Assembly: GCA_030167145.1 (NCBI GenBank)
Contig: CP126532.1
Location: 1,560,001-1,592,000 of the forward strand
Source: Ktedonobacterales bacterium
GTDB taxonomy: Bacteria > Chloroflexota > Ktedonobacteria > Ktedonobacterales > JADMIN01
Length of the DNA: 32,000 bases
Reading direction: 5' to 3'
Shown: one piece after another, positions 7,022 through 26,844 of the stretch
Position numbering within the stretch: position 1 is the stretch's first letter
How the letters are laid out: each line of letters opens with the position of its first letter
Notes under the pieces: generated by a model
Told to the model about the DNA's origin: nothing
The model's input: only the letters and a program-made list of their open reading frames with translations
Databases searched by the model: none
Program-made: the position numbers and the translations under genes

Positions 7022-7187
7022 AGCTACCTCCCTGTGCGAAAGACCCGCTACCTTGATATCCCATCTATTCCGGGCATGTGGACTGCGCTTGCCTGCGAAT
7101 GCCTCACGCCCACCCTGCCACGCTGGCGCACTGGCGTCACATATCGGTCTCCATCCATCACCCGCATCACACATGCCTGTCACACCC

Positions 7188-7236
7188 GCATCTCACCTCG
7201 CCATCTCACCTCGCCATCTCACCTCGCCATCTCACC
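7188..7236 (+). repeat. 13-nt tandem repeat (CCATCTCACCTCG), about 3.8 copies
   Basis: Read directly: gcatctcacctcg / ccatctcacctcg / ccatctcacctcg / ccatctcacc. It ends 10 nt before the candidate -35 at 7246. Confidence 0.9.
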
Positions 7237-7617: not shown

Positions 7618-8499
7618 GTGATTCCGGAGGACTTCACCTATTTTGCCCCCGGTAGCTTGCCAGAAGTGTGGGATTTGCTACGACAGCATCCCGATGACGC
7701 GAAGATCCTCGCTGGTGGCCAGAGCCTTATCCCGCTCATGAAATTCCGCCTCGCCACCCCCGCTTACCTGATTGATCTGCGCAAAGTCCCTGGCCTCGAT
7801 ACCCTCGCCGAGCGCGATGGCGCTCTCGTCATCGGCGCGATGGTCCGCGAAGCCGCCACCGAACACTCGCAGCTCATCCAGCGTCGCTACCCCGGTATCC
7901 ACGAAGCCAGCGCCGTTGTCGCCGATCCCCTCGTGCGCAACTTCGCCACCATCGGCGGCAATATCGCCCACGCCGACCCCGCCAACGACCACCCCGCCAT
8001 GCTGCTCGCCCTGCGCGCCAGCGTCGTCGCCCACGGCCCCAACGGCCAGCGCACCATCCCCCTCGACGACTTCCTGGTAGACACCATGGAAACCTCGCTC
8101 GCCCCCGACGAAGTGCTCACCGAGATCCATGTGCCACAGCCCGCCCCGCGCAGCGGCTCAACCTATCTCAAGCTAGAGCGCAAAGTCGGCGACTACGCCA
8201 TCGCCGCCGTCGGCGTACAGATCACCCTTGATGGCGACGTATGCACCCAGGCCGGCATCGGCCTCACCAACGTTGGCCCCAAAGCTGTCCGTGCCACCCA
8301 GGCCGAGATGTTCCTCACCGGCAAACAGCCCACCGAGGATGTCATCCGCGAAGCCGCCCGGCTCGCCGCCGCCGCCGCTCAGCCCGTATCCGACCTGCAT
8401 GGCCCCGAAGATTACAAACGCGCGATGATCCGCACCCTCACAGCGCGGGCGCTGCGCGAGGCGACACAGCGCGCACGCGCGGGAGGCGTATCAGCATGA
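7618..8499 (+). CDS. coxM: Aerobic CO dehydrogenase medium (FAD-binding) subunit
   Basis: GTG at 7618, 6 nt after AAGGAGG (7605-7611). [17 protein letters not shown] and [12 protein letters not shown] are FAD-binding motifs of the CoxM/XdhB family. The stop overlaps the coxS start (ATGA). Confidence 0.85.
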
Positions 8500-11941: not shown

Positions 11942-12913
11942 ATGCGCACCGATCTCCTCGCGAATGCTCAGCAATTGCGCTCTGAGCAGCGCAGCTTCGC
12001 CCTGGCGACCGTCGTCGCGGTCCGCCAGCCTACTTCCGCCACCCCCGGCGCTCGTGCCATCATCCTTCCCGATGGCCGCGTCGAAGGCTGGATCGGCGGC
12101 CACTGCGCCCGCCCCTCCGTCATCCGCCAGGGACTCGACGCGCTCGCCACCGGCACACCGCGGCTCGTCGTCATCAGCCCCGATGCGCGCGAGCCGTCCG
12201 ATCTCACCAACGGCATCGTGGAGGTTCCCATGCTCTGTGCTGGCCAGGGCGAGCTACAGGTCTTCGTCGAGCCATTCCTGCCCCGCACCGCCCTCACCAT
12301 CATCGGCGAATCAGCCGTAGCGCGCTCCCTCGCCAAACTCGCCACCCTGCTGGATTTCGAGGTCTGGGCCTGCGACCCTCTCGCCGACATGGACACCTTC
12401 CCCGATGCCGACCGCCTGGTCCCCACCCTCGACGCCCTCACCCCGCAACTCACCGAGCGCCACTACGTCATCATCGCCACCATCGGCGAATACGACGAAG
12501 ACGCCGCGCTGGTCGCCCTGCGCAGTCCCGCCAGCTACGTCGGCCTCGTCGCCAGCAACAAACGCCTCGCCACCGTCTCAGCCTATCTCACCGAACACGG
12601 CGCCTCCGCTGAGCAGGTCGCGCGGCTCAAGCGCCCGAAAGGCCTCCCTGGCTTCGTCATCAAACCCGAAGAGATTGCCTTCAGCATCCTGGCCGAACTC
12701 ATCGAACTGCGCCATCAGCGTATCGGCCTGCTCCCCACCACTCCCTCGCCCGAACGCGCCACCGCCATTGACCCCATCTGCGGCATGACCGTAGACATCG
12801 CCACCGCCCACCACACCTCCACCCGCAACGGCCAAACCTACTACTTCTGCTCCGCTGGCTGCAAAACCACCTTCGAGTCCTCCCCAACCCCCACAGCCTC
12901 CCCGCATTCGTAG
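11942..12913 (+). CDS. XdhC/CoxI-family molybdoenzyme maturation protein fused to a C-terminal YHS (TRASH-class) metal-binding domain
   Basis: N-terminal FALATVVAVRQPTSATPGARAIILPDGRVEGWIGGHC and central Rossmann-like TIIGESAVARSLAKLA are XdhC-like. C-terminal DPICGMTVDIATAHHTSTRNGQTYYFCSAGCKTTFESSP matches the YHS pattern. Confidence 0.8.
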   Translation: MRTDLLANAQQLRSEQRSFALATVVAVRQPTSATPGARAIILPDGRVEGWIGGHCARPSVIRQGLDALATGTPRLVVISPDAREPSDLTNGIVEVPMLCAGQGELQVFVEPFLPRTALTIIGESAVARSLAKLATLLDFEVWACDPLADMDTFPDADRLVPTLDALTPQLTERHYVIIATIGEYDEDAALVALRSPASYVGLVASNKRLATVSAYLTEHGASAEQVARLKRPKGLPGFVIKPEEIAFSILAELIELRHQRIGLLPTTPSPERATAIDPICGMTVDIATAHHTSTRNGQTYYFCSAGCKTTFESSPTPTASPHS

Positions 12914-12932
12914 GGGCGTCCGGCGGACGCCC
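12914..12932 (+). terminator. GC hairpin immediately after the cox operon stop (GGGCGTCC-GGC-GGACGCCC)
   Basis: Perfect 8-bp stem starting one nt after the TAG. No clear U-tract (GTTCTCGC follows), so intrinsic-terminator function is uncertain. Confidence 0.4.
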
Positions 12933-13248
12933 GTTCTCGCACCGCTTCATCCATCTCACAACGCGAAAATGTCACACATGCCCAAATCACCATCATCTGT
13001 GACATCCCAAAATCCCGAAAAAAGCACTTCCCGTCTACCGAGCGATGATACACTGTGACATTGCCGTGCAAGAACCCGCCCTGCGCAAACGCATCCGGCG
13101 CGGCACACTCCTCTCCATCAAGCATGGCAAACGCTTCTACAGCCATCCCCTCCTTGCCCTCTGATATATCCGGGCGTACACAGCGATAATGCCCATTCCG
13201 CTTCCAAAACGCTCATCACGTATCCCCTCCTTGCCTCCCCATTCTCCG

Positions 13249-13262: not shown

Positions 13263-13318
13263 TTCACACCAGGACTGTAGGGGCATCTACCATTCCAGTT
13301 GTGCAGCCATTCGGTAGA

Positions 13319-13404
13319 GCGGACATTCCTGTCTGCCTCTGCTGGTGGGGCGGACATTCCTGTTTGCCTGCTGGCTACTGGCAGGGCGGACATTCCTGTC
13401 TGCC
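13319..13404 (+). repeat. Three spaced copies of a 20-nt hairpin module (G)GCGGACATTCCTGT(C/T)TGCC
   Basis: Copies at 13319-13337, 13349-13368 and 13385-13404. The stem GGCGGACA/TGTCTGCC needs a G-U pair that exists only on the + strand. An inverted relative lies at 25814-25833. Confidence 0.8.
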
Positions 13405-13441: not shown

Positions 13442-14869
13442 ATGACATCGCCCGCCGCCTCCGACACCCCGCGCATCTTCGTCAGCCACAGCCACGAAGA
13501 CGACGACTTCTGCCGCACCTACGTGACCGAACTGCGGCGACTCCTTAGCTTCCACGACGCCGTCTGGTACGACGAGCACAACATGGGTTCAGGCGAACTC
13601 CTGCGCGAGATCCAGCGCCAACTGCATCAGCGGCCCATCTTCATCGTCATCCTCTCGCCCGCCGCCCTGCACCGCTCGCGCTGGGTTCCCGACGAATGCG
13701 CCTGGGCCTACGACCTCTACCAGCAAGAAACCGGCCGCACCATCCTCCCCGTCACCGGCGCACCCATCACCGCCAAAGACTTCGTACCCGACTGGATCTA
13801 CCTCCGTGGCTTCCGCCGCATCGAAGCCCCCAACCTCCAACCCTACCCCCCGCAAGAAGCCGCCCGCCGCACCGTCGCCGCCCTCCCTTCTACCGTGCAA
13901 GCCACGCCCACCGCGACACTCACTTCCAATTCAACCTTATCCGCACCTGCTCCTGCCTCACCTCCCAAGCGCCCGCGCGCCAGGGAGGGCGGTCAGGGCG
14001 GTCCGATACTGGTGAAGCCTGTGCTCAGCGCGTCTACGCCTACCCCGAAACCGTCCGCGCCCGCGCTCCCACCAGACCAGTTCCCCCCACGCCTCGCCAG
14101 CCTCGGCTTCACTGTGCAGGCAGCGACCGACACTACTGGCAAGCGCATCCCCTACATCCTCCCACCGCTCTGCTCCGTCCCCGCCGGACTCTTCCGCATG
14201 GGCAGCGACCCCCGCCAGGGCCGTGCCATGCCGGACGAGGAACCGCAGCACGACGTCACCTTGCCCTCCTACCAGATCGCGCGCTACCCCATCACCGTCG
14301 CCGAATACGCCTGCTTTGTCCACTCCGGGCACAATGCCCCTACCGATTGGGCCACGCAGCAGGGCAAGCTCGACCACCCCGTCATATGGGTCTCGTGGCA
14401 CGACGCCGTCGCCTACGCCAAGTGGCTTGCCAAGCTCACTGGCCAGCCGTGGCGGCTGCCCACCGAGGCCGAATGGGAGAAAGCCGCCCGCTGGGATCCG
14501 CCGCGCCGCGTCAGCCGTCTCTATCCCTGGGGCGACACGTTTGACAAAGTCAGCGCCAACACGTCCGAAAGCGGCAATCATGGCACGACGCCCGTGGGCA
14601 CGTACCCCCATGGCGCCAGCCCTTGCGGCGCACAGGATATGGTCGGCAACGTCTTGGAGTGGTGTAGCAGCCTCTATAGACCGTACTCGTACAACAGTTC
14701 ACTTGGAAGAGAGGAGATGGACGATTCTACTGACAGGCGTGTGCTACGGGGCGGCTCGTGGTACGCCGGCACCATGGAGGCGCGAGCGGCCTTCCGCGGC
14801 AACCTCTGGCCGGGTGTCACCGACTACTTTATTGGCTTCCGCTTGGCTCTCGCGATCCCCATCTCATAA
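13442..14869 (+). CDS. TIR domain / FGE-sulfatase (SUMF1-like, cysteine-less) domain fusion protein
   Basis: GGGAGG 9 nt upstream of the ATG at 13442. TIR motifs: RIFVSHSHEDDDF, PIFIVILSPAALHRSRWVPDEC. Pro/Ser/Thr-rich linker. FGE-sulfatase motifs: FRMGSD, WVSWHDAVAYAKWL, RLPTEAEWEKAARW, GNVLEWC, LRGGSW, GFRLA. Confidence 0.8.
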   Translation: MTSPAASDTPRIFVSHSHEDDDFCRTYVTELRRLLSFHDAVWYDEHNMGSGELLREIQRQLHQRPIFIVILSPAALHRSRWVPDECAWAYDLYQQETGRTILPVTGAPITAKDFVPDWIYLRGFRRIEAPNLQPYPPQEAARRTVAALPSTVQATPTATLTSNSTLSAPAPASPPKRPRAREGGQGGPILVKPVLSASTPTPKPSAPALPPDQFPPRLASLGFTVQAATDTTGKRIPYILPPLCSVPAGLFRMGSDPRQGRAMPDEEPQHDVTLPSYQIARYPITVAEYACFVHSGHNAPTDWATQQGKLDHPVIWVSWHDAVAYAKWLAKLTGQPWRLPTEAEWEKAARWDPPRRVSRLYPWGDTFDKVSANTSESGNHGTTPVGTYPHGASPCGAQDMVGNVLEWCSSLYRPYSYNSSLGREEMDDSTDRRVLRGGSWYAGTMEARAAFRGNLWPGVTDYFIGFRLALAIPIS

Positions 14870-15083
14870 CCCAATAGCCGTATTCTGTTACTCTAAAAAT
14901 GTATGCGCATCACCAATGTACAACTTTTGTTGCAAGCGCCCGGTAGCAGTCGGTGCTTCTCTCGTGCGCGAGCATCGCGGCCCTTGACCACAGCCTTCCG
15001 ACCCTTCACGCGCGTCCACCTTTGCCCACCTCGTGTCTGCTTCTGCCCGCCTTCGCCCCCACCTGTCCCCCCGTGCCCTCCCT

Positions 15084-15580
<497 letters not shown>

Positions 15581-15612
15581 GCGCCGTGTCCGTCCTTAAT
15601 TGTGCAACTGCA

Positions 15613-17088
15613 TCACCCGCCCGCAGTCACATTCCGCGTCCCCGCAATCACCGCATTGACCGGACCCGACCCCATCACCACCACCACATCACCAGGGCGA
15701 CGCAGCTCGCGCAGCAGCGCGGCGGTTTCATCGTAATTGCCGCCGTAGCGTGCCGCGCCAGGACGGTCCGCAAATGCCAGACGCTGGGCAATCTTCTCAG
15801 AGAGCGCGCTGCCGTGGATCAGCCCGGTATCGGACTCGCGCGAAGGTTGAATCTCGACAATGATCACCTCATCGGCGAGGTCGAAGGCTTCGGAGAACGG
15901 CGTCAGAAAGCGGTGCAGCCGGGTGTAGAGCGTCGGCTGAAAGACCGCGATCACGCGGCGACCAGGGAAGCGCTCGCGGGCGGTTTCCAGGGTCAGCGCC
16001 ACGGCGTGCGGGTGGTGGGCGTAGTCGTCCACGAACGTCACATCGCCATCCTCGACGATCTCAAATCGGCGGCGCAGCCCCGGCCAGTGGGTGAGCGCCG
16101 GTACCAGCACATCGTGCGAGACGCCCAGCGCATCGGCGGCGCAGGCGGCGGCAACCGCGTTGTAGACATTGTGGCGGCCAGGGGTACTCAGCGTAACGCG
16201 GCCCAGATGCTCGCCACACAGGCAGAGGGTGAAACTGGTCTCGCCGCCCACGAACACCTCCTCGCCGCGCGCATCCACATTCGGCGTGTCCAGGCCGAAC
16301 GTGCGCACCACACCGGGCCAATCGCCAAGCAGACGCAGCACGTCCAGGCAGCCGGGGCTATCGGCATTGAGGATCAGCGTCGGCGGGATCGCCCCGTTGT
16401 CGCCATGTTCAGACATATCCATGCCGCGAATGAACGAGACGAAGGCGTCGCGGATGACCTCATACGAGGGATAGAACTCAGGGTGGTCGTACTCCACGGC
16501 GGTCAGCACCACCACGCGCGGATGGTAGTTGAGGAAGTTGTAGTCCCACTCATCCGCCTCGTTGAGGAAATAGGCGCTGTGGCCGTGGCGGCTGTTCGTC
16601 CCCCATTCCAGCGAGATTGCGCCCACCTCCACCGTAGGATCCAGTCCCCCCGCCACGGCGAGGCTGCCAAGCAGCGCGGTAGTCGAGCCTTTGCCGTGAA
16701 CTCCCGCAACCGAGACCCCCATATAGCCGCTCATCAGATAGCCGAGCAACTCCTGCCACTTGCGCGTGGGGATGCCGCGCTCACGCGCGACGACCAGTTC
16801 CGGCAAATCTGGATTGCGATGCGTAATAAACGGCGTGTACACCACCAGATCAGCATCCGCGCTATGCGTCGCATCGTGGCCCAGCGCCATAGCAATACCA
16901 TCGGATTGCAGCGCGCGAAATCCCGCCGAGGCCGAAATGTCGCAGCCAGAGACCAGCGCGCCATGCTGCCGCGCGAGCCAGATCGCCGACGAGATGCCAG
17001 GGCCGCCCGCACCGATGAAATGGATGCGTTTACCGCTCATCCCCGCAGGAAACAACTCCGCCAGCGAAAGGGTCTCTGTTCCGGCCAT
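15613..17088 (-). CDS. murC: UDP-N-acetylmuramate--L-alanine ligase
   Basis: IHFIGAGGPGISS (N-terminal nucleotide fold), VAGVHGKGSTT (P-loop), DDYAHHPHAV..VFQPTLYTR (MurC C-terminal pattern). 491 aa. Confidence 0.8.
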   Translation of the reverse strand: MAGTETLSLAELFPAGMSGKRIHFIGAGGPGISSAIWLARQHGALVSGCDISASAGFRALQSDGIAMALGHDATHSADADLVVYTPFITHRNPDLPELVVARERGIPTRKWQELLGYLMSGYMGVSVAGVHGKGSTTALLGSLAVAGGLDPTVEVGAISLEWGTNSRHGHSAYFLNEADEWDYNFLNYHPRVVVLTAVEYDHPEFYPSYEVIRDAFVSFIRGMDMSEHGDNGAIPPTLILNADSPGCLDVLRLLGDWPGVVRTFGLDTPNVDARGEEVFVGGETSFTLCLCGEHLGRVTLSTPGRHNVYNAVAAACAADALGVSHDVLVPALTHWPGLRRRFEIVEDGDVTFVDDYAHHPHAVALTLETARERFPGRRVIAVFQPTLYTRLHRFLTPFSEAFDLADEVIIVEIQPSRESDTGLIHGSALSEKIAQRLAFADRPGAARYGGNYDETAALLRELRRPGDVVVVMGSGPVNAVIAGTRNVTAGG

Positions 17089-19720: not shown

Positions 19721-20161
19721 TTAGTTCGATGTGTCATTCTGGAAAGCGCCAGACAACATGATACTGAGAAATCCCAACGGAATAAGGAGGATCAATGCCA
19801 CAGCGAGCGCATTCTGAAGTGCCCCAAAGGGTAATCCAAATATGCCTGGGAAGGACGGCATGAACAACCTGAGCGCAAACGCCAGGATCGCATCTATAGC
19901 GGCAATACCAGGTACGATGCGCGCCCATGCGGGACGGATACCGCCGAGAAATCGGAGAACATACCCAGCAGCGAGTAACAACTCAAGACCAACAACCGAC
20001 CCTAACACGAGCTTCGAATCCCCTATTATGCCTCCCAGGGCGATACAATTTAGTACAAGCAAAAGCGCACCTCGCCGCCGTGCGCGATTTCTGTTCCAGA
20101 CGATCTGCGGCGCTTCTGGTACGCCAACCGGCGCCGCAGGCTCTTCTGCTTCTGATGCCAT
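19721..20161 (-). CDS. Hypothetical integral membrane protein (about 4 TM)
   Basis: Hydrophobic segments after an acidic and then basic N-terminus. Lies in a visibly lower-GC patch. Weak RBS. Confidence 0.5.
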   Translation of the reverse strand: MASEAEEPAAPVGVPEAPQIVWNRNRARRRGALLLVLNCIALGGIIGDSKLVLGSVVGLELLLAAGYVLRFLGGIRPAWARIVPGIAAIDAILAFALRLFMPSFPGIFGLPFGALQNALAVALILLIPLGFLSIMLSGAFQNDTSN

Positions 20162-20316
20162 GCTCGACCCACTCTCAGCACATCTTCCAAATCATAATCT
20201 CACCAACCAAGCTCCATAATCGGAAACGCCCGCAAGAGTTCAGAGTTCAGGATTCAGCCAAACGCTCTTTACGTAGCATGATACACCACATGTGCGCACC
20301 CGTCCGCACTAGTCCA

Positions 20317-21064
20317 CATCTGACCCCATCTGACCCCATCTGACTACCCGCCACCACCGGCCCCACATGCTACACTACCCCTGCACTGCCCCTGCGCTAC
20401 CATGCGCCTCACCGCGAAGGACACGCAACCGTGAACCACCCGCCATGTCAGCACCTATCTGCCATCCAAAAATCGAAAAAACGGCCACATCGGCCACTCC
20501 ACGCGATCCGTTCACACAGGATTACCCGTGGGCTTCAGGCCGAGAGCTTCCTATACCACCTCCGCTCGCCCTTGATGCAAAAATCGGCAGAATCGGCAAC
20601 TCATATCCGCGGCGAAAAATCAAAAATCGGCCACATCGGCCACTGTCATTCTCGTTCGGCCAGCGCGCAAATCGGCAGAATCGGCAACTGTCACACGTTG
20701 GCAACTCCGGCAACTCCGGCAACTCCGGCAACTGCCAAACATGCCCCATCGGCCATTTCGGCCACTATGTTCCGCCCAGGATTACCCGTGGCATTCATGC
20801 TACGTCCTCGCCCTACCACCCTATTCACCACCCGCTGTTTCCTCCGCACGAGATCACCTGCGGCCTTCAGGCCGGGAGCCTCCTTTACCACCCCGCTCGC
20901 CCTCCCACAAAAATCAAAAAAATCGGCAGAATCGGCAACTGCCTTCCTCATTCGGCAACTGCAAAAATTGGCCACTTCGGCCACTGCGGGCATTTATGCC
21001 ATCTCATCTGTGCTCCGGCCATTCATGGCCGAGGTGGGAACCCCGCCCACCATTCATGGCCGAG
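20317..21064 (+). repeat. Non-coding repeat mosaic C: (CATCTGACCC)x3, 20-mer box, hairpin modules, at least 8 A-tract + 9-nt doublets, (GGCAACTCC)x4
   Basis: 10-mer array at 20317-20346. Box at 20361-20380. Hairpin modules at 20517-20571, 20777-20804, 20850-20906 and 21013-21064. Doublets between 20468 and 20986. 9-mer array at 20700-20735. Confidence 0.85.
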
Positions 21065-21200
21065 AGCACGCCCACGATGTTGCCGAATGGCACAAAAACT
21101 GCGGGCCGAACGCGGACAGAAAGTCGTACATCAGCGTACAAACAGGCACACACATGGGATGCTATGGGTCATTCCCGCACGTGGGAGGAAGGAGCGCGGC

Positions 21201-22031
21201 ATGGATACACGAGCACCAGAGGCGCAGCAGTCAACTGCGGATCAGCATAATTGGCGCGCAAGCTTGCTATTGCGGCGACTGATCGTGGATCTGCGCACCA
21301 TCGAGAGCATTGGCGAGGTCGCTGATGTCGTCTTCGACCCGGTAAGTTGCCGCCTGGCGGCGGTTGGTCTGGCGGCGCGGGATACCGAGAGCGCGACCAG
21401 CCCCGTCGTCACGATGGCGCGGCGCATGTTTGGCGGCGTCCACACGCTCACCTATATCAGCGTCGAGCGCATCATCGCCCTCAATGGCGACGTGGTCACG
21501 GTAGATACCGAAGCGCCGCATCCGGGCAATCTCCAGCATGTAGACCGTCTGCCGCATCTCAGCCAAACGCGCGACCTACCGGTAATTACCCTGCGCGGGC
21601 GGCGGCTGGGCAAGCTGGTGGATCTCCTACTGGACAGTGACGGTGGCCGCATAACCGGCTATCTCATCAAGCCCACACGCTTCGCCACGCCGCTCACCAA
21701 CGCCTACGAAGAGCCAGTGTCGGCCAGTGAGGACGACGAAGATCATCGAACCGAAGGCCAGGACGGGCCAGCCGCGCCGGAACTCGCGCCCTCGAAGCTG
21801 CGGGTGATTCCCGCCTCGCCGCAGATTCGTGTGGGCCGCGCACTCATCATCGTCTTCGAGGACGAAGGCTATACCTTCGGCAGCACAGGCTTGATTGGCA
21901 GGGAGCAGCAGACGGATCTACCCGCACTGGATGGCGGCGGCGCTAGCGGTGATGTTGCTGGCTGGTATGCCTCTGATGGCGGCTCCGCCGATGGCAGAGC
22001 CGACCATCAGCCTGAGCAGACGCTGCATTAA
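21201..22031 (+). CDS. PRC-barrel domain protein (two PRC-like modules, acidic tail)
   Basis: GGAGGAAGGAG precedes the ATG at 21201. Module 1: LIVDLRTIESIGEVADVVFDP. Module 2: LPVITLRGRRLGKLVDLLLDSDGGRITGYLI. These are PRC-barrel-like. The upstream 278 codons of the track ORF are repeat DNA. Confidence 0.65.
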   Translation: MDTRAPEAQQSTADQHNWRASLLLRRLIVDLRTIESIGEVADVVFDPVSCRLAAVGLAARDTESATSPVVTMARRMFGGVHTLTYISVERIIALNGDVVTVDTEAPHPGNLQHVDRLPHLSQTRDLPVITLRGRRLGKLVDLLLDSDGGRITGYLIKPTRFATPLTNAYEEPVSASEDDEDHRTEGQDGPAAPELAPSKLRVIPASPQIRVGRALIIVFEDEGYTFGSTGLIGREQQTDLPALDGGGASGDVAGWYASDGGSADGRADHQPEQTLH

Positions 22032-25744: not shown

Positions 25745-25837
25745 AACGGGCGGTTGAAACCGCGCCTGCATGGCCGCTGGCCGCGAAACCCGCCGTCGCG
25801 GGTTGAGGAGCGAGGCAGACAGGAATGCCCGCCCTAC
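25745..25837 (-). repeat. Composite REP-like element filling the whole convergent gap between the Fe-S protein gene and murB
   Basis: On the minus strand: GTAGGGCGGGCATTCCTGTCTGCC, AACCCGCGACGGCGGGTTTCGCGGC, AGGCGCGGTTTCAACCGCCCG. This is the same module order as 15492-15549. G-U pairs form only on the minus strand, which is the murB sense strand. Confidence 0.75.
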
Positions 25838-26844
25838 CAGTCGCCGCGCGGCTCAACCTCAAGCTCCAGCGCGATGCCGAACGTGTCGTAGACGGTGCGG
25901 CGGGCGCGGGCGATCAGCGCGACGACATCGGCAGCCGTCGCGCCGCCGGTATTGACGATGAAGTTGGCATGCTTGGGCGAGATCTGTGCTTTGCCGGAGC
26001 ACGCGCCCTTCAGTCCCACCGCTTCGATCAGCCGCCCAGAGTAGTCGCCAGGGGGGTTCTTGAAGACCGAACCAGCGCTGGCCTGCGGCGGCTGCGTATC
26101 CTTGCGATACTGAAGGTTGTAGGCGACGCGCTCACGCACGCGGGCCGGGTCGTCGCGGCGCAGCACGAAGGTTGCGCCGGTGATGATCTCCGGCGGCTCG
26201 ATGTGTGCGCGCGGCGAGACGCAGGGCTGGCCGTCGTCGTCGAAGATGATTTCGCGGGCGGCGCGGAAGCGGCTGCGACGGTAGCCGAACGCCAGTTCAG
26301 CGGCGGTCAGTTCGCGGATGGCCGGCGGCTCATCGCCCGTGCCGCTGGTAAAGAGCACGCGCGCCGTTTGCAGCGTATCGGAGACGCATTGCTGGTGCGC
26401 GCCCGCGTTGCTGACCACCGCGCCGCCGATGGTGCCAGGCACGCCCGCGCCCCATTCCAGCCCGGAGATGCCGCGCTTGGCCAGGTCGTTGACCAGCTTG
26501 GGCAGGCTGACGCCCGCCCCCGCGATCAGCCGGGGCGTGTCGCTCTCCTCGTCTTCGAGCCGCCAGTCGTTGAGGGCCATGCGGGCGACGATGCCACGCG
26601 CGCCAGCGTCCGAGTAGAGGACGTTGGTGCCGTTACCGACGAGCATCAGCGGCCAGTCGCGCTGTTTTGCCAGCGCCGCCAGCGCGATCAGGTCATCTTC
26701 GCGTTCCACGGCAATCCACACGTCCGCCGGGCCGCCGACGGCGAAGGTGCCATGCCGTGCGAGCGGCTCGCTGGCGCGGGTGCGGTCGCCGAAACGCTGG
26801 CGCAGATCGTCGAACATCGTGGCGGTATCCTGGCGGGTGGGCAT
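25834..26844 (-). CDS. murB: UDP-N-acetylenolpyruvoylglucosamine reductase
   Basis: FAVGGPADVW, LVGNGTNVL, GAGVPGTIGGAVVSNAGAH, SAGSVFKNP and AQISPKHANFIVN motifs. Confidence 0.9.
   Translation of the reverse strand: MPTRQDTATMFDDLRQRFGDRTRASEPLARHGTFAVGGPADVWIAVEREDDLIALAALAKQRDWPLMLVGNGTNVLYSDAGARGIVARMALNDWRLEDEESDTPRLIAGAGVSLPKLVNDLAKRGISGLEWGAGVPGTIGGAVVSNAGAHQQCVSDTLQTARVLFTSGTGDEPPAIRELTAAELAFGYRRSRFRAAREIIFDDDGQPCVSPRAHIEPPEIITGATFVLRRDDPARVRERVAYNLQYRKDTQPPQASAGSVFKNPPGDYSGRLIEAVGLKGACSGKAQISPKHANFIVNTGGATAADVVALIARARRTVYDTFGIALELEVEPRGDW

Follow-up and report, generated by a model that had tools for sequence, protein, structure and literature searches.

A stop-poor repeat array with its own header ahead of a PRC-barrel gene in a Ktedonobacterales bacterium

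What is a block of repeats doing directly in front of a PRC-barrel gene, and does any of it belong to the protein? The question is raised by positions 20162-21200 of a window of 32,000 nucleotides (nt), the whole stretch of DNA analysed here, which comes from a Ktedonobacterales bacterium (GenBank assembly GCA_030167145.1, contig CP126532.1, positions 1,560,001 to 1,592,000). An original prediction made from the letters of this window described the region, called mosaic C, as repeat DNA through which a 554-residue open reading frame (ORF) happens to run, and suggested that a 20-mer box within it might be a promoter. Our reading, to which we give a probability of roughly one half, is that mosaic C is a transcribed and translationally transparent array, added on ahead of the PRC-barrel gene.

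The genome is a single contig of 5.07 Mb with 62.6% GC. Mosaic C is not an assembly artefact, because an independent short-read contig (Logan SRR22113990) matches 20917-21230 at 100% identity; it ends exactly at one of the repeat modules, a doublet of type D.

Stop codons and the header-linked reading frame

Between 20381 and 21200 the forward strand holds two stop codons (20432 and 20573), whereas 13.5±2.7 are expected from dinucleotide-preserving shuffles (n = 1000), whose minimum was 6. This depletion of about 6-fold concerns the sense strand; the reverse strand contains 31 stops versus 26.5 expected. No forward frame is interrupted between 20576 and at least 21248. One of the open frames is linked to a conserved header that stands at the upstream end of the array and is composed of the following parts.

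20162..20316, no strand: single-copy spacer between a divergent small ORF and the header, without genomic copies and with normal forward stop codons
20312..20348, plus strand: 10-bp-phased (C/T)TGACC repeats, detected with Tandem Repeats Finder, their register kept in 17-29 headers and in other genera
20361..20380, plus strand: 20-mer box CCCCACATGCTACACTACCC with extended -10, invariant in the header alignment
20416..20421, plus strand: Shine-Dalgarno (SD)-like GAAGGA, 9 nt before GTG 20431, aligned with CGCAAGGAGC of other headers
20431..21282, plus strand: header-linked ORF of 283 codons with GTG start and TGA stop at 21280, scoring -0.09 in the codon model described below, no Pfam match

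The header extends over about 150 nt and has a consensus order. Three or four phased (C/T)TGACC repeats are followed by a C-rich spacer of about 25 nt and by CATGCTACACTACC; after another 25-35 nt or so comes a CGCAAGGAGC-like motif, then 7-10 nt, an ATG and usually the first doublet of the array. The tandem repeat (CATCTGACCC)x2.8 at 20317-20344 is part of the phased repeats, and in mosaic C the start that aligns with the header ATG is GTG 20431. Within the box, TG (20368-20369) and TACACT (20371-20376) form TGcTACACT, which corresponds to the TGnTAnnnT pattern of an extended -10 of the sigma-70 type; ATG 20367, the first codon of the 554-residue ORF, falls inside this element.

The proposal that the box is a promoter has gained support. 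Copies of TGCTACACT outside arrays lie 25-86 nt from gene starts, and in some of them TACACT is accompanied by a TTGACN -35 at 17-18 nt. In the related genomes G015 and G024, which represent other genera, the phased repeats and the box sit 40-60 nt before ordinary genes with SD and ATG, and in G015 even the order of header, SD, ATG and D-like doublet is conserved. From these patterns the box appears to be a genuine promoter element. Mosaic-type headers have no -35, and their phased repeats finish about 25 nt before the -10; for this reason we infer an activator-dependent extended -10 promoter, with the phased CTGACC repeats as its candidate activator site. A simple sigma-70 scan of 20162-21200 returned no promoter beyond the box, and no plus-strand terminator was found before the ATG at 21201. 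The combination of phased CTGACC repeats and TGCTACACT defines a conserved Ktedonobacterales promoter type.

The header-linked ORF traverses the whole array and reaches its stop 82 nt into the PRC-barrel gene, in a frame other than that of the gene. Its product is not a conserved protein: it has no relative among 5.8 billion protein clusters and no Pfam match. Inside this single ORF the D module is read once as KSAESAT and once as IGRIGN, which agrees with the earlier statement that conservation acts on nucleotides and not on protein. Does a ribosome nevertheless pass through? The signals that precede the frame and its length suggest that it is probably read by ribosomes.

This view is reinforced by the rest of the genome, where the same units recur. 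A hidden Markov model finds 29 header copies at E < 1e-5, and a covariance model built from sequence only finds 33. In the 26 headed arrays (15.5 kb), forward stops amount to 17 in the SD-linked frame and to 29 and 30 in the other two, versus roughly 85 expected for each. Arrays without any stop in the SD-linked frame number 16 of 26, compared to 8 and 11 for the other frames (zero-stop p = 0.008). In most arrays the SD-linked ORF spans the full length and ends no more than about 140 nt to either side of the next gene start; at loci other than mosaic C this distance ranges from -137 to +106 nt. At 2 of 21 arrays it is in frame with the downstream gene (p = 0.013).

Many repeat copies share ancestry, and copy counts therefore overstate independence. 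Since copied modules are non-independent observations, we scored separately the unique array DNA, defined by genome-unique 16-mers (11-mer and 13-mer versions masked nearly everything and were dropped). This unique DNA holds 48 forward stops compared to 80.4±6.6 expected, with a normal reverse strand (193 versus 204), while the repeat DNA within arrays holds 19 versus 82 expected. Ordinary upstream regions show a depletion of only about 10%. In the consensus sequences of eight module families there are no forward stops and 10 reverse stops. Furthermore, 92 of the 107 tandem repeats inside arrays have a period of 9 nt, which keeps the reading frame.

The modules that make up the array in mosaic C are these.

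20469..20985, plus strand: seven A-tract + 9-nt doublets of types D (AAAATCGGCAGAATCGGCAAC) and E (AAAATCGGCCACATCGGCCAC); each module matches up to about 155 sites in the genome
20516..20569, plus strand: H module 1, with GATTACCC flank, 7-bp stem and TTCA loop
20700..20733, plus strand: tandem repeat (GGCAACTCC)x3.8, period 9 nt, frame-preserving
20776..20829, plus strand: H module 2, holding the 28-mer common to mosaic B
20848..20901, plus strand: H module 3, a CGGCC-TTCA-GGCCG variant
20987..21065, plus strand: K module and partial extra copy, with a double hairpin at 20987-21032 (GGGCA-TTTA-TGCC and CCGGCCA-TTCA-TGGCCG)
21066..21182, plus strand: single-copy spacer with zero stops in the forward frames; no consensus promoter or plus-strand terminator found

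Every element that had been described for mosaic C is found again: the CATCTGACCC repeat (x2.8), the box, the hairpins (three H modules and the double hairpin), the GGCAACTCC repeat (x3.8) and a ribosome-binding site (RBS) before the gene. The doublets are present as well, though seven were counted between 20469 and 20985 where at least eight had been announced; they start at 20469, 20572, 20615, 20660, 20737, 20911 and 20956, at irregular spacings of 43-251 nt. The extent needs correction. BLAST of the region against the whole genome limits the repeat DNA to 20317-21065 and leaves 20162-20316 and 21066-21200 as single-copy sequence. The shared 28-mer lies where it had been placed: counted from the box ATG, its offset is 142 nt in mosaic B (15090 to 15232) and 410 nt in mosaic C (20367 to 20777), and these offsets put it in different frames.

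Mosaic B (15035-15600) itself has a full header with the box at 15084, AAGGAG and ATG 15151, followed by an array. It sits between convergent genes, an FGE-sulfatase/TIR gene ending at 14869 and a MurC-like gene on the minus strand (15613-17088). This copy serves no gene; its header ORF continues without a stop for 1977 nt and runs antisense to murC. Upstream of mosaic C, the divergent ORF on the minus strand (19721-20161) encodes a hydrophobic product of 146 residues at a GC content of about 53% and without Pfam match; it is a gene in the public annotation and is not called by our own codon-based gene-finder.

Where the PRC-barrel protein begins

The long ORF through mosaic C raises the possibility that part of it is protein after all. 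The features at stake are the following.

20367..21200, plus strand: spurious 278-codon N-terminus of the mechanical 554-residue ORF, non-coding, no homologue
21183..21194, plus strand: RBS of the PRC-barrel gene, GGGAGGAAGGAG, 6 nt ahead of ATG 21201, read from the sequence
21201..22031, plus strand: PRC-barrel gene of 276 residues, supported by Pfam PF05239 (37 bits), a codon score of +0.21, the public gene call and homologues

Coding character was scored as a per-codon log-likelihood ratio (LLR) by a codon model trained on long ORFs of the same genome. Over 20367-21200 the LLR is -0.15, -0.09 and -0.20 in the three frames and the GC content at third codon positions (GC3) is about 0.58. Over 21201-22028 the LLR rises to +0.21, close to the genome mean of 0.23, with a GC3 of 0.71. 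The start at 21201 is chosen both by our own gene-finder and by the public gene call (276 residues), and public annotation has no gene in 20367-21200. The PRC-barrel domain, as defined by Pfam, is confined to the C-terminal part of the 554-residue ORF. Residues 1-278 have no similar protein among the 5.8 billion protein clusters. Eight homologues from genomes in the same family have alignments that begin at residues 1-18 of the 276-residue form. In the same-genus homologue the protein begins at a Met aligned with 21201 and the frame is closed 21 codons upstream.

The PRC-barrel protein thus begins at ATG 21201, as had been supposed, 20367-21200 is not its N-terminus, and the 554-residue ORF is an annotation artefact. 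An N-terminal extension was rejected on the grounds of its LLR (-0.15), the absence of homologues and the aligned Met in relatives. One could still argue for a real protein in another form, be it the 554-residue product, a PRC-barrel form of 528 residues from ATG 20445, which is in frame with the gene and lies 23 nt from the SD-like motif, or a separate repetitive protein of 283 residues. The long open frames and the SD-like motif before GTG 20431 would speak for it. Set against these, codon usage is non-coding in every frame, neither homologues nor a Pfam match exist, one ORF reads the same module in different frames, homologues begin at the Met aligned with 21201 and the public annotation has no gene there; we consider such a protein extremely improbable. 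The lesson goes beyond this locus: ORF-based annotation of such genomes yields false long proteins, the 554-residue ORF being one example.

A family of headed arrays in the genome and its relatives

If the array does not belong to the protein, does it belong to the gene? It had seemed to be a control region of the PRC-barrel gene in particular, and this idea does not stand. Eight PRC-barrel homologues elsewhere have neither box, doublets or TTCA hairpins nor a stop-poor upstream region, and header and array also precede unrelated housekeeping genes, among them those for L21, GyrA, KsgA, urocanase, asparagine synthase, NAD(P)HX repair and aminotransferases. The rplU and gyrA orthologues in five relatives have no arrays either. 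The native promoter of rplU (TTGACACC...GGTATGCT), which is kept in relatives, is intact at -173, downstream of header and array. Because homologues and orthologues manage without arrays and rplU retains its native promoter, the arrays are add-ons and not ancestral control regions, and mosaic C is a lineage-specific one. At the rplU locus (G000:C1 about 2,136,800-2,138,030) the addition comprises 900 nt of header and array ahead of the native promoter and leader, and G002, G015 and G017 have the native promoter only.

The search for the same modules before other genes, which the original prediction had recommended, yielded 52 multi-module clusters, mosaic C among them, and about 29 of these begin with the header. 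Genome-wide, the D doublet occurs 132 times, the E doublet 57 times and the H hairpin about 112 times, while the box is found in 17 exact copies and the header in about 29-33; a control pattern read backwards gave no genomic matches. Modules point in the same direction in 50 of the 52 clusters, and the box, when present, always marks the 5' end. In gaps between tandem genes, 22 clusters run with the genes and 3 against them (p = 8e-5); divergent and convergent gaps hold 20 and 7 clusters. These positions refer to gene coordinates from our own simple gene-finder. Replication-strand polarity was rejected as the cause of module orientation, as both orientations occur along the chromosome and go with the direction of the genes. 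Behind the fixed 5' header, the mixture and order of D, E, H, K and T modules vary from array to array, and there is no common 3' module.

The families differ in their spread. Many genera of the family have H and K hairpins; the copies inspected there are double hairpins that stand alone. The D doublet, with its 132 copies here, is absent from two same-genus assemblies and occurs 1-4 times in three other genomes. Header copies number 33 here (by the covariance model), 31 in G015 and a few in G017 and G023. In G015, several contigs (C99, C172, C4 and C139; loci L055, L056, L063 and L066) end within about 300 nt past the header, which suggests that the arrays of that genome break short-read assemblies and are under-represented in metagenome-assembled genomes. 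Such breaks in short-read assemblies are a practical consequence of the arrays.

These distributions invite a simpler view: the array could be unconstrained junk, produced by replication slippage and by the build-up of selfish repeats akin to repetitive extragenic palindromes (REPs) or miniature inverted-repeat transposable elements in a permissive intergenic gap, and not specifically transcribed or translated. The differing ages and ranges of the families, with family-wide hairpins and with doublets and headers in few genera, are what one would then expect, as are the 9-nt tandem stutter typical of slippage, the absence of the locus in relatives and the presence of three Y1-transposase genes (Y1_Tnp), one of which adjoins H and K modules. 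Junk would hardly be co-oriented within clusters and with downstream genes (22:3), and classical clusters of REPs or bacterial interspersed mosaic elements (BIMEs) alternate in orientation, which mosaic arrays do not. Nor does it account for a stop depletion that is strand-specific even in single-copy array DNA, for a conserved header with promoter, SD and start, or for compensatory stem changes. We regard this view as unlikely.

The Y1-transposase-like gene in question (G000:C1:3971690-3972390; Y1_Tnp, 61 bits) carries a HUH motif that looks degenerate (PDRVYM), with an H module and a K double hairpin ahead of it on one side. Judged from this arrangement it is possibly a partner of the hairpin repeats, similar to REP-associated tyrosine transposases; among the three Y1_Tnp genes the association with modules, on a single side of this one, is not significant.

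Could the array act as DNA? Direct 9-bp doublets with A-tracts resemble multi-site protein-binding arrays, and one may think of iterons or of a platform for nucleoid proteins. The spacing of 43-251 nt is irregular, the about 52 loci are without an associated replication gene, orientation tracks gene direction, and neither stop avoidance nor the G·U bias of the sense strand described below has a rationale at the level of DNA. A DNA-level role is very unlikely, and an iteron array in particular was rejected in view of the irregular spacing (43-251 nt) and of about 52 loci beside housekeeping genes.

Leader RNA, mechanism and comparison with known systems

If the box was a promoter, the PRC-barrel mRNA had been expected to carry a structured leader of about 830 nt. 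Structure is present locally, in the hairpins. Overall it is modest: the 832-nt sense RNA folds at -276 kcal/mol compared to -256.5±8.7 kcal/mol in shuffles (z = -2.3; antisense z = -1.5), and the leader is C-rich and G-poor, with 293 C and 185 G over 820 nt; the GC skew of the arrays ranges from -0.11 to -0.38. That the leader is simply untranslated is probably wrong as well, given the conserved SD and GTG 20431, the depletion of stops by about 6-fold and a frame that is open to 21282.

The hairpins deserve attention of their own. The 96 copies of the H module that have a TTCA loop show 64 different 7-bp stems, in which compensatory changes occur. Stem position 1 is A-T in 64 copies and C-G in 30; position 5 is C-G in 55, T-A in 21 and T·G in 11; position 6 is G-C in 34, C-G in 14 and T-A in 4. 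Since G·T pairs number 73 and A·C mismatches 17, full pairing of the stem is achieved on the sense strand alone. The hairpin therefore fits an RNA, or a single-stranded DNA, read from header to array, and these substitution patterns show it to be under selection on that strand. An Rfam scan of the window gave nothing in the mosaic region, and the TTCA-loop hairpin is absent from Rfam; it defines a conserved Ktedonobacterales motif.

How might these parts work together? The header would supply an upstream activator-type element, the extended -10 (20368-20376), the SD-like motif (20416-20421) and the start GTG 20431. Transcription would begin just after 20376 and read on into the PRC-barrel gene, since no plus-strand intrinsic terminator intervenes. 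Ribosomes starting at GTG 20431 would then cross the C-rich array and stop at 21280-21282, so that the long insert would not be naked, Rho-prone RNA and downstream expression would not be blocked, while translation of the PRC-barrel protein would start independently at the strong RBS of the gene. The genome encodes Rho (Rho_RNA_bind, 116.8 bits), and its action on untranslated RNA, with the resulting polarity, is established (PMC12548453). Growth of the array would most likely proceed by 9-nt slippage and by exchange between copies, and the array would persist because translation is not obstructed. This suggests that repeat DNA which leaves ribosomes unhindered can spread into the regions ahead of essential genes. 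Any regulatory use of the array by the host is hypothetical.

Several observations weigh against this reading. Stop depletion hits every frame, and in raw counts the frames differ little (chi-square p = 0.13), so that specificity for the SD-linked frame is modest. The header ORF at rplU is closed after 20 codons, but only one stop occurs in the next 800 nt. Because this array stays stop-poor past the end of its ORF, freedom from stops may be an inherited property of the modules and not a sign of ongoing translation; it is, at least partly, built into them. In G015 stop codons in the DNA behind headers are depleted by about 34% on each strand alike, so that strand specificity is not reproduced there, in assemblies that break inside arrays. 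The genome-wide gene map, as the product of a simple gene-finder, is crude. Translating about 280 junk codons per transcript is costly, and selection on the hairpins hints at a role at the RNA level that the transparent-array explanation leaves unused.

Such a role is at the centre of another proposal, namely that the array is an RNA docking platform, its doublets and TTCA hairpins binding an RNA-binding protein in a sponge-like or chaperone-loading leader. Each array carries many co-oriented copies of two or three short motifs, the hairpin loop is constant while the stem covaries with a G·U bias on the sense strand, and hairpin modules are conserved across many genera. On the other hand, the locus has no terminator or architecture of a stand-alone transcript and no Rfam match, SD, start and stop avoidance are unexpected in a sponge RNA, and the hairpins of relatives are solitary and REP-like. 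We find this proposal quite unlikely. A sponge of the CsrB/RsmZ type was rejected: there is no plus-strand terminator, the loops are TTCA, AGGA/GGAG is not enriched and Rfam gives no match.

Closer to the transparent array is its regulatory counterpart, in which the array would be a leader that loads Rho, shielded only during translation of the header ORF, and would form a genome-wide Rho-dependent attenuator that makes expression of the PRC-barrel gene and of roughly 30-50 others dependent on translational capacity. This is conceivable, though doubtful. It would make use of the GC skew of -0.11 to -0.38, the weak folding of the sense strand, the encoded Rho with its established polarity on untranslated RNA (PMC12548453), the header SD and start conserved in two genera, the depleted forward stops and the rarity (2 of 21, p = 0.013) of header ORFs in frame with the downstream gene. 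What it does not explain is why the downstream genes have no common functional theme, why relatives have no arrays before their orthologues of the PRC-barrel gene, rplU and gyrA, and why rplU has its native promoter between array and gene and a header ORF that ends after 20 codons. More speculative and more doubtful still is the picture of dozens of housekeeping genes placed behind long C-rich leaders, free of stops in all frames and made of self-propagating repeats, whose translation from the shared header would be needed to hold off Rho, so that a genome-wide attenuator would scale output with ribosome availability and the TTCA hairpins would add a control point at the RNA level. In addition to being tolerated, arrays may have been recruited as a translation-coupled control layer. 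A further candidate, in which tracts resembling an anti-SD (CCUCC) would sequester the RBS of the gene, was rejected: CCTCC occurs 26 times versus 33.7 expected.

Translated leader ORFs control Rho-dependent termination at mgtA/mgtL of Salmonella and topAI/toiL of E. coli, where they are short and gene-specific. The mosaic leaders are similar in having a leader ORF on RNA that is, here by prediction, Rho-prone, before a separately initiated gene; they differ in their length of about 100-300 codons, in being made of repeat DNA and in occurring at dozens of unrelated genes. In its composition the leader corresponds to the sequence description of a Rho-dependent translated leader: it is C-rich, G-poor and weakly structured, and Rho is encoded.

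Several known repeat families share traits with the mosaic arrays. Pneumococcal elements with boxA-boxB(n)-boxC structure (BOX) are likewise modular, dispersed and near genes, with a fixed end module and variable internal modules. Mosaic arrays differ from them in having no fixed 3' module, a header made of promoter, SD and start, and several unrelated module families; to our knowledge BOX elements have no counterpart of stop-codon avoidance or of the C-rich strand bias. The BIMEs and REPs of enterobacteria are extragenic mosaics of short hairpins and linker motifs in hundreds of copies, and Y1-transposase genes occur in this genome too. The H and K hairpins, however, have GATTACCC or other flanks in place of the GTAG tag, which belongs to a separate family elsewhere in the genome, and mosaic modules are mostly upstream of genes and co-oriented in 50 of 52 clusters, not alternating. 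Rickettsia palindromic elements are also selfish repeats that avoid stop codons and whose translation is tolerated, but they insert in frame within genes and enter the protein, whereas the mosaic arrays stay outside the conserved protein and are in frame at 2 of 21 loci.

Mycobacterial interspersed repetitive units (MIRUs) are dispersed intergenic repeats that carry an ORF and whose insertion near a gene start disturbs downstream expression little (PMC12548453). Mosaic arrays, similarly dispersed, intergenic, variable in tandem number and ORF-carrying, come closest to MIRUs in the way they work. The MIRU ORF overlaps the downstream start by 4 nt, in contrast to the stop of mosaic C, which lies 82 nt past ATG 21201, and a mosaic unit comes with a promoter of its own, has all three frames open and combines modules of several families. 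A MIRU-like -4 coupling of stop and start was rejected, with an offset of 82 nt here and of -137 to +106 nt elsewhere. Promoter reuse in prokaryotes, where a closely similar promoter segment recurs before unrelated genes (PMC3575422), resembles the recurrence of the header before unrelated genes in the same genome and in related genera. This likeness covers the header alone; the mosaic unit adds SD, start codon and a long repeat array. Our literature search found no description of such Ktedonobacteria repeats or of stop-free bacterial repeat arrays. The family of header and array is apparently undescribed, and a repeat family with its own promoter, RBS and start codon and with stop avoidance in every frame is new as far as the literature was searched.

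Other short repeat families in this genome include GTAG-tagged palindromes, TTCC-loop hairpins and further doublets. Within the window, a GTAG-tagged REP-like palindrome (GTAGGGGCGTCCGGCGGACGCCC, 12911-12934, about 114 genomic copies) follows directly after the stop of the upstream gene and represents a classical family of REP type, separate from the mosaic modules. At 13308-13404, T hairpins (GGCGGACATTCCTGTCTGCC, about 100 copies in the genome) form a tandem of three that separates a box copy (13249) from the TIR/FGE-sulfatase gene, and an inverted copy of the T hairpin is found at 25812-25845. The segment 15491-15514 was rejected as a CRISPR array: its Rfam CRISPR-DR28 score of 33.6 bits is below the cut-off of 35, and it is a dispersed hairpin repeat with roughly 39 copies (CGCGAAACCCGCCTGCGCGGGTT). 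Finally, the tandem repeat (CATCTCACCTCGC)x3.7 at 7158-7236 occupies a C-rich stretch in a promoter-proximal gap, upstream of the gene-finder start at 7618.

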